Of a stretch of 64,000 nucleotides of DNA, positions 4,338 through 5,190 are shown piece after piece (position 1 is the stretch's first letter; every line of letters starts with the position of its first letter). Under the pieces are notes generated by a model that did not search any database, was not told the origin of the DNA, and was given only the letters and a program-made list of their open reading frames with translations. Source of the stretch: Escherichia coli (GTDB taxonomy: Bacteria > Pseudomonadota > Gammaproteobacteria > Enterobacterales > Enterobacteriaceae). The stretch is from NCBI RefSeq assembly GCF_003334255.1, contig NZ_QOWU01000012.1. The stretch is one strand, 5' to 3'. A program made the position numbers and the translations under genes.

Positions 4338-5073
4338 CGGTTGTTACTGAAGGGGATTATGGCCTGACGGCTCCCTGTAAATAAAGACAGGCACAGAAGA
4401 TTGTGAGTTACTCAGTGTTCCACCAAAAAGTAAGGTCGCAACTCTGTGCCTGCTTCGTAAGTGTACAGTGAGGGCCATATGGTTATAACTGAAGCATCCG
4501 ACGACGTGGTGTCTACCCAAAAAGCGACCTGTGAATATTAGGCTGGTTAAGTGCGTATTTTCATGGAAGGAGATCACCCAATAACCCCGATCTCCTTTAT
4601 GTTAATACGCATTAAGCGGGTAAAACAGGAAGATTAAGAAAGGGAGAGTTTTTCGACTCCCCAACCAGGAGAAGCAGCTTATAACTACCAGATAGTTGTT
4701 ATGTCATACATGACGGATAATGTCATAAAAAATATGTCATTGCCGTGATTATGATCGCGTTATTGGATAAAGCAGTTCAGCGGTTTCCCAGGCTTCCTGC
4801 AGCGTTTCCTGTACAAATTCGTGCACGGATTCTTTATTTACAACTCTTAAAATGGTGAGTCCATCATTGCTGGTGGTTCTGACAATCACGTCCACATGGT
4901 CATATCCGTTAGTTATGGAATGACTATAAGGGGGGATAAGCCTCTGCAAAACAAAAAAAGACTTTAACAAAATCAATCAGTTAAAAACACAGAAAAACGC
5001 TATGAAAAATCACCATAAAAGTTTGTTTTTCCTTTTATAAATAGCTGTTTATCACATTTTTTATAATCTACCA

Positions 5074-5190
5074 GTGTGGTACATGGATATCGATACCACC
5101 GCCAATTATAAGCTGGGCGGTGCACAGCAACACGATAGCGTACGCCTCGATCCGTGGGTGTTTATGTTCTCAGCAGGATATCGTTTTTAA
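5074..5190 (+). pseudogene. ompW: ompW 3' fragment (last ~38 codons plus stop); 5' part and promoter absent
   Basis: In-frame translation VWYMDIDTTANYKLGGAQQHDSVRLDPWVFMFSAGYRF* matches the OmpW C-terminus as I recall it. The frame has a stop at 5038-5040 and no OmpW-like sequence further upstream. Confidence 0.8.

Follow-up and report, generated by a model that had tools for sequence, protein, structure and literature searches.

The stretch of Escherichia coli DNA analysed here, 64,000 nt long and referred to below as the window, opens inside a prophage and passes into the ordinary chromosome at ompW. Positions 1-5677 match GenBank AF151091.1 (Prophage P-EibA of strain ECOR-9, positions 5602-11279) at 99.93% identity over 5,678 bp, with 3 mismatches and 1 gap, and this near-identity covers the eibA-eaaA right end of that prophage. 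The eibA-eaaA region of P-EibA in ECOR-9 was reportedly described by Sandt & Hill in 2000. Both sequences run from orf-60A through eaaA, a DinI-like spacer and the ompW tail into the beginning of yciE; the ompW fragment and the att site carry no annotation in the AF151091 record. A 60-aa ORF at positions 56-238 on the plus strand is the 'orf-60A' of the P-EibA record, and the window must therefore start inside the eibA-eaaA intergenic module of the prophage.

Next in order is eaaA (330-4337, plus strand), a 1,335-aa ORF whose product is identical to P-EibA EaaA at 1,334 of 1,335 residues. A GDSGSP serine-protease motif is visible in the translation, an autotransporter barrel is matched by TIGR01414 over residues 851-1335 (E = 1e-72), and relatives annotate the gene as 'S6 family peptidase'. 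With a predicted GDSGS protease passenger followed by a C-terminal autotransporter β-barrel, EaaA can be placed by its domain layout among the SPATEs (S6 peptidases). It has long been listed as a prophage-borne SPATE of a commensal strain, with expression and activity never shown (PMC3153244). Between eaaA and the att site, still in prophage DNA, lies a small DinI-like ORF (4749-4976, minus strand) that matches phrog_189, 'RecA filament binding protein DinI', with E = 8.9e-8 and that several relatives annotate as a 'DinI-like family protein'; a promoter-like site is found near it, also on the minus strand, at 4950-4923.

The complete genomes closest to the window are G8 and G6/7 (99.9%) and SCU-104 (99.8% over 24 kb), none of them identical to it, and the exact EaaA-ompW tail junction occurs in 39 of 5,426 complete E. 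coli genomes. Gene order in relatives runs through tape measure, gpL/K/I/J, tail fibre, a YadA-like Eib, eaaA and the DinI-like gene to the ompW tail. Since these relatives carry a full lambdoid prophage with eaaA at its tail-fibre end, the left part of the window is the end of a prophage and not a generic island. What the original prediction took for a SPATE island is thus known EaaA/Eib lambdoid prophage cargo, lodged at an E. coli locus that is among the most heavily used by prophages.

Individual relatives show rearrangements and additions of their own. Strain G8 has the IS21-family element ISEc12, its istA frameshifted, immediately downstream of eaaA, and this element explains a gap of about 2.6 kb in the match to the window; eaaA itself is split into two ORFs in G8 and intact in the window. 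The KY203 prophage carries a PAPS-reductase-like gene and an IbrB-like gene, an ibrAB-type pair (locus L002, 26761-28616, and locus L001, 3417-4580), and has an ompC-like porin gene inserted among its tail genes. Genes of the ibrAB type have been described as activators of eib expression.

To the right of the junction the window is native chromosome. Collinearity with MG1655 extends rightward for 3,343 nt with 1 mismatch (at 6088), through yciE-yciF-yciG and into trpA. The native hairpin terminator between ompW and yciE (5204-5226; a 10-pair stem with 6 G-C pairs, then a T run) is identical to that of MG1655 and has been kept on the chromosomal side, and yciE (5250-5756, minus strand), annotated as such in MG1655 and in relatives, is the first intact backbone gene past the prophage. 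The remainder of the window (6900-64000) is ordinary E. coli backbone, including the trp operon, yciO/Q, rluB, sohB, topA, cysB and beyond, and neither the ORF layout nor the match to relatives revealed further insertions in that interval.

A native ompW tail at a known attachment site

Identity to K-12 starts sharply at position 5072. From there to 5190, DNA alignment shows the window to be identical (119/119) to the last 119 nt of MG1655 ompW, beginning at ompW nt 521 in codon 174; exactly 520 nt of the gene, together with the ompW promoter, are absent on this side. A junction inside ompW at about 5072, leaving some 38 codons and removing about 520 bp and the promoter, had been proposed from the letters of the window, and the MG1655 alignment confirms it to the base. 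What remains is an orphan 38-codon tail (5074-5190, plus strand), equivalent to OmpW residues 175-212 and representing the displaced native C-terminus; the product of this ORF reads (M/V)WYMDIDTTANYKLGGAQQHDSVRLDPWVFMFSAGYRF up to the stop codon. The assignment of the peptide to the OmpW C-terminus in the original prediction is upheld by synteny with yciE and by a match to positions 170-212 of the 212-position NCBIfam OmpW equivalog profile NF008202 (E = 7.9e-18), which is far beyond chance. At 64.5 bits against a full-length cut-off of 287, the tail is a gene fragment below the OmpW equivalog cut-off; in relatives, the RefSeq label for the same tail is pseudogene, 'missing N-terminus'. Neither a plus-strand promoter-like site (by promoter scan) nor any match to an Rfam family was found in 4300-5300, so there is no support for the orphan tail or the spacer as an expressed feature, and expression of the tail is not expected.

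Together with a following TT, the fragment (native ompW nt 521-639) forms the attR copy of a 121-bp att repeat at 5072-5192 on the plus strand. Nakamura et al. 2021 described lambda-like PPompW prophages integrated in ompW with attL/R of 121 bp (PMC8112680). With the repeat_region that LC567822.1 annotates as 'duplication due to insertion of PPompW', the window repeat agrees in extent to the single base; it is nearly identical to the attR copy of that record and identical at 95/121 positions to its attL copy. The junction in ompW is therefore at the 121-bp PPompW att sequence. Within the repeat, the 28-bp core at 5072-5099 (plus strand; CAGTGTGGTACATGGATATCGATACCAC, ompW nt 521-548) is the presumed crossover region. 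It is common, without a single difference, to MG1655, the window, SCU-104, G8 and PPompW_132418, and native and phage-borne ompW copies begin to diverge right after it; the strand-exchange point is resolved to within this core only. In KY203, core position 5 is C at attL (CAGTCTGG, locus L002 at about 40830) and G at attR (locus L001 at about 20730) and at attB. The change is synonymous, and reflects either a later point mutation or strand exchange at the extreme left of the 28-bp core.

On the phage side of the core, the tail's reading frame is closed by a TAA at 5038-5040, and GC content is 28% over 4900-5069 against 49% in the ompW fragment. The original prediction was right about this stop and right that the AT-rich DNA is unrelated to ompW, but this DNA is not anonymous: about 4944-5071 is a conserved phage P arm. 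Aligned to the attR of PPompW_132418, which carries unrelated nleG cargo, the window becomes alignable exactly from 4944 and remains similar up to the core, with a near-identical 47-bp block at 4944-4990; the P arm beside the core is thus conserved with that of a bona fide PPompW. It opens, at 4944-4952, with the 9-mer CTGCAAAAC, which recurs in two to three tandem copies at attL in SCU-104, G8, KY203 and PPompW_132418, lying 5-40 bp past the phage-borne ompW stop. From its position, its conservation and these tandem repeats, CTGCAAAAC is a candidate integrase arm-type site; its count across the window (2 found, 1.1 expected) is not significant. At attL the tandem repeats are followed by an inverted repeat, TGGTCATCAAATGACCA.

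The PPompW prophages of STEC/EPEC strains (LC567822.1) thus resemble the window in their ompW site, the 121-bp att extent, the 28-bp core and the conserved P arm, and resemble the window's relatives in an int/xis module that is 94.5% identical at the DNA level. They differ in cargo: on PPompW there are T3SS effector loci (nleG and others) and, for Stx phages, an internal attB of 21 bp, whereas prophages of the window type carry eib, eaaA and the DinI-like gene, and the window left of 4944 is unrelated to PPompW. Excision and circularisation have been reported for the PPompW of O145:H28 (PMC8112680).

Could the fragment derive from a different OmpW-family paralogue, or itself be a phage-borne copy? 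Phage-borne ompW tails do occur at secondary prophage sites as well ('attB-in-PP_3', PMC8112680), and such pieces are represented by fragments P0022, P0023, P0031 and P0037. However, phage-borne ompW copies are only about 78% identical to the native sequence and adjoin int, and the combination of 119/119 identity to K-12 with contiguity to yciE rules out both versions of this idea.

The integrase end in related carriers

As the window begins inside the prophage and its own attL lies beyond the window start, what we describe for the far end comes from relatives, of which four carriers were examined (JNEC-KY203, SCU-104, G8 and NCTC9112). In 4/4, xis and a lambda-type integrase with an arm-DNA-binding domain abut a full-length ompW, beyond which stands the normal yciC-yciB-yciA-tonB backbone. 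A second, imperfect 121-bp copy is present next to the integrase and excisionase in each of the four, and by record coordinates the int-proximal junction lies about 51-62 kb from the ompW-tail junction. The ompW-tail and int region of SCU-104 has 94.5% DNA identity to eleven PPompW records; the criterion used for the PPompW integrase was >90% identity (PMC8112680). The original prediction had left insertion into ompW and replacement of its 5' part as two options. In relatives the 5' part does lie beyond the point corresponding to the window start, as insertion would have it, and replacement is contradicted.

The far-end gene is a hybrid. Its first 520 nt are identical to MG1655 and lead into the 28-bp core, after which it departs from the native sequence, with 27/119 mismatches over the tail. 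Its products are uninterrupted, at either 212 aa (…AKYKSGVTTVKDSVRLDPWVFMFSAGYRF) or 217 aa (…AKYKSDGRKLAKGSYSDNVRLDPWVFMFSAGYRF), the last 38-43 or so codons being supplied by the phage. Their NF008202 scores, over positions 1-212, are 402 and 394 bits, compared with 404.7 for native OmpW and a cut-off of 287, and RefSeq annotates the hybrid ORFs in carriers as OmpW. Hybrid or phage-tailed ompW genes lie at 1501-2139 in locus L004, 6903-7541 in locus L006 and 40706-41359 in locus L002 of these relatives. A substitute 3' end that restores an uninterrupted ORF at the int-proximal junction, in the manner known from icd, is thus what the relatives contain. The original prediction had OmpW non-functional under insertion and replacement alike, unless an intact ompW stood elsewhere at the locus; such a gene is present at the int end in all four related carriers, with scores of 394-402 bits, and the predicted loss of function is not supported.

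We consider it highly probable that window 5072-5192 is the attR of a lambda-like prophage of the P-EibA/PPompW family, and that integration by this family rebuilds ompW at attL. A tyrosine integrase would carry out site-specific recombination into ompW codons 174-183, using a phage attP in which a P arm and a P' arm flank a 28-bp core whose sequence is that of ompW. The P' arm would comprise the phage's diverged copy of the remaining ompW 3' end, then arm-type sites and then int. At attL, recombination would join the native 5' 520 nt of ompW through the core to the phage-borne tail, so that the gene is intact though slightly altered; at attR it would put the native tail, now displaced, behind the P arm and core, as the orphan 38 codons beside yciE. 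EaaA, the upstream eib gene and the DinI-like gene would be cargo at the right end of the prophage. It is the intact hybrid ompW of the carriers that leads us to read the window fragment as a displaced native tail whose gene has been rebuilt at the other junction. By extension from these relatives, the window's own genome presumably has the same attL, and the hybrid OmpW is probably expressed and functional.

A known parallel is the icd system, in which a tyrosine integrase acts on the 3' part of a protein-coding gene for which the phage brings a substitute end, the native tail being orphaned at attR. Phage 21 and e14 enter icd by the same logic as proposed here, with a diverged substitute 3' end, an ORF kept at attL and an orphan tail at attR. 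The target gene and the integrase specificity are different, and so is what the exchange touches: the icd product is a cytoplasmic enzyme, whereas the ompW tail changes 7 residues, or changes a segment and adds 5, all in the tip of one surface hairpin belonging to an outer-membrane receptor. The icd case of phage integration is cited by Bobay et al. 2013, who found ompW among the most occupied prophage hotspots and, in contrast to icd, called it 'disrupted' (PMC3603311). For the present integrase family that description is contradicted by four genomes in which full length is kept or 5 codons are gained. That an attR scar of this prophage family is found at this att site is, in itself, already known.

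The published view of ompW as a gene disrupted by phage integration would favour another account of the window, in which a SPATE island inserted into ompW or replaced its 5' part and left a colicin S4-resistant strain with no functional OmpW. The window side does hold just the last 38 codons without a promoter, the tail copy is flagged as a pseudogene by RefSeq, and the window's own left junction is out of view. We nevertheless judge this account very unlikely. The related carriers have an intact ompW ORF with full-length scores at the other end in every case, and the arrangement is widespread: with at least 80% query coverage, the integrase-ompW junction is found in 1,707 of 5,426 complete E. 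coli genomes (about 31%), with ompW annotated beside the integrase, and the uninterrupted ompW-yciE junction in 3,442 of the 5,426. Loss of OmpW is not supported.

A different objection is that the prophage has decayed or been rearranged in the window's strain, with its int/attL end deleted or inverted, so that the fragment is a true dead end. Prophages of this family do deteriorate, as seen in the frameshifted int, portal and capsid genes of KY203 and in the IS21-family element and split eaaA of G8. They are also moved: in EC2 (NZ_CP058571.1), the EaaA-ompW' and int-ompW junctions are about 770 kb apart (about 2.235 and 3.007 Mb) and on opposite strands, a layout that implies a large chromosomal inversion between prophages, and inversions of a similar kind have been reported at ompW and ydfJ prophages (PMC8112680). 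Yet the int-ompW hybrid is intact even in these rearranged or decayed relatives, none of the examined carriers is without it, and an inversion moves ompW but does not destroy it. A dead end of this kind is likewise very improbable, and integration with reconstitution of ompW remains our explanation for the window.

The phage-borne tail and the OmpW surface

The phage-borne tail was examined for selection in two types, A and B. Outside codons 185-194, the B-type tail has only synonymous differences from native ompW at the protein level, in 10 codons (dS about 0.82, dN about 0.06), and the A-type tail gives dS 0.92 and dN 0.02. Across 29 codons, the B-type tails of SCU-104 and G8 differ by 7 changes, all of them synonymous; with 66 non-synonymous and 21 synonymous sites, neutrality would produce such a pattern with a probability of about 5e-5. 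These substitution patterns point to a tail kept by purifying selection and, because translation of the tail requires its fusion to ompW in a lysogen, they argue that the hybrid protein is probably made and matters. Strong purifying selection also weighs against loss of OmpW, as it is sensible only if the fusion is translated and useful. The dS of about 0.8-0.9 suggests an old capture, or capture from another genus; a homologue search with a 56-aa C-terminal query returned short fragments only and no full-length donor.

Structural modelling gives an OmpW-like barrel. An AlphaFold model of the B-type hybrid OmpW, built from a 115-sequence OmpW-family alignment (pLDDT 91.5, pTM 0.82), superposes on the crystal structure of OmpW, 2F1T, with a TM score of 0.97 and an rmsd of 0.9 Å, and this fit, too, speaks against loss of the protein. 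In the model the last two strands span residues 169-188 and 191-211, with the turn at 189-190. All seven B-type substitutions fall within residues 185-194, N185 and H194 having become lysines, and these strand limits put residues 185-194 at the distal tip of the last hairpin (strands 7-8). In the modelled eight-stranded barrel, with the C-terminal Phe at the periplasmic rim, this tip is predicted to be extracellular. In the OmpW family, loops on the outer side are long and periplasmic turns short (PMC2993939).

The tip exists in several forms. Where the native tip reads ANYKLGGAQQHDS, the phage-borne alleles read AKYKSGVTTVKDS (B type) and AKYKSDGRKLAKGSYSDN (A type), and further variants, ASYKSNGTPVKDA, ASYKMGGVQQRDS and EVKYKSNGAVLPAGRYSDN, occur in orphan fragments. 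Among the OmpW tail fragments (P0001-P0067) there are at least 6 E. coli tip variants, all between invariant flanking strands, and the B-type tip is unchanged between phage lineages at dS 0.44. In the family alignment, variability within the region is highest at OmpW positions 187-195, which alone are prone to indels there.

Short ompW C-terminal ORFs are also found in Salmonella enterica, S. bongori (73 member sequences), Klebsiella pneumoniae, Leclercia and Kluyvera (P0015, P0018, P0024, P0034, P0036 and P0066). Their occurrence suggests that the same ompW att site may be used across the Enterobacteriaceae; some of these ORFs may be partial calls at contig ends.

Colicin S4 uses OmpW as its primary receptor (PMC2649078), and OmpW also serves a T4-like Serratia phage as receptor (PMC10132071). 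One could therefore imagine that the phage tail swaps the last surface hairpin tip of OmpW as a form of lysogenic conversion, altering a receptor by way of the att site itself. We put this forward as a tentative and rather doubtful idea. It would fit the confinement of all amino-acid changes to the tip, the conservation of the B-type tip between phage lineages and its two new lysines. Relaxed constraint on the loop in an anciently captured fragment explains the tip pattern equally well, since the OmpW family as a whole varies most, and is most prone to indels, at the tip positions, and in the literature searched we found no test of a phenotypic effect of the altered tip.

For the interpretation of bacterial genomes, the locus shows that an orphan gene tail beside a prophage is an expected integration scar and should not be read as gene loss. 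The ompW tail being such a scar, neither colicin S4 resistance nor loss of the porin is to be expected from it. Instead, the OmpW of lysogens differs in its surface hairpin tip; were this exchange to act as conversion of the receptor, roughly one E. coli strain in three would be altered in its susceptibility to colicin or phage.
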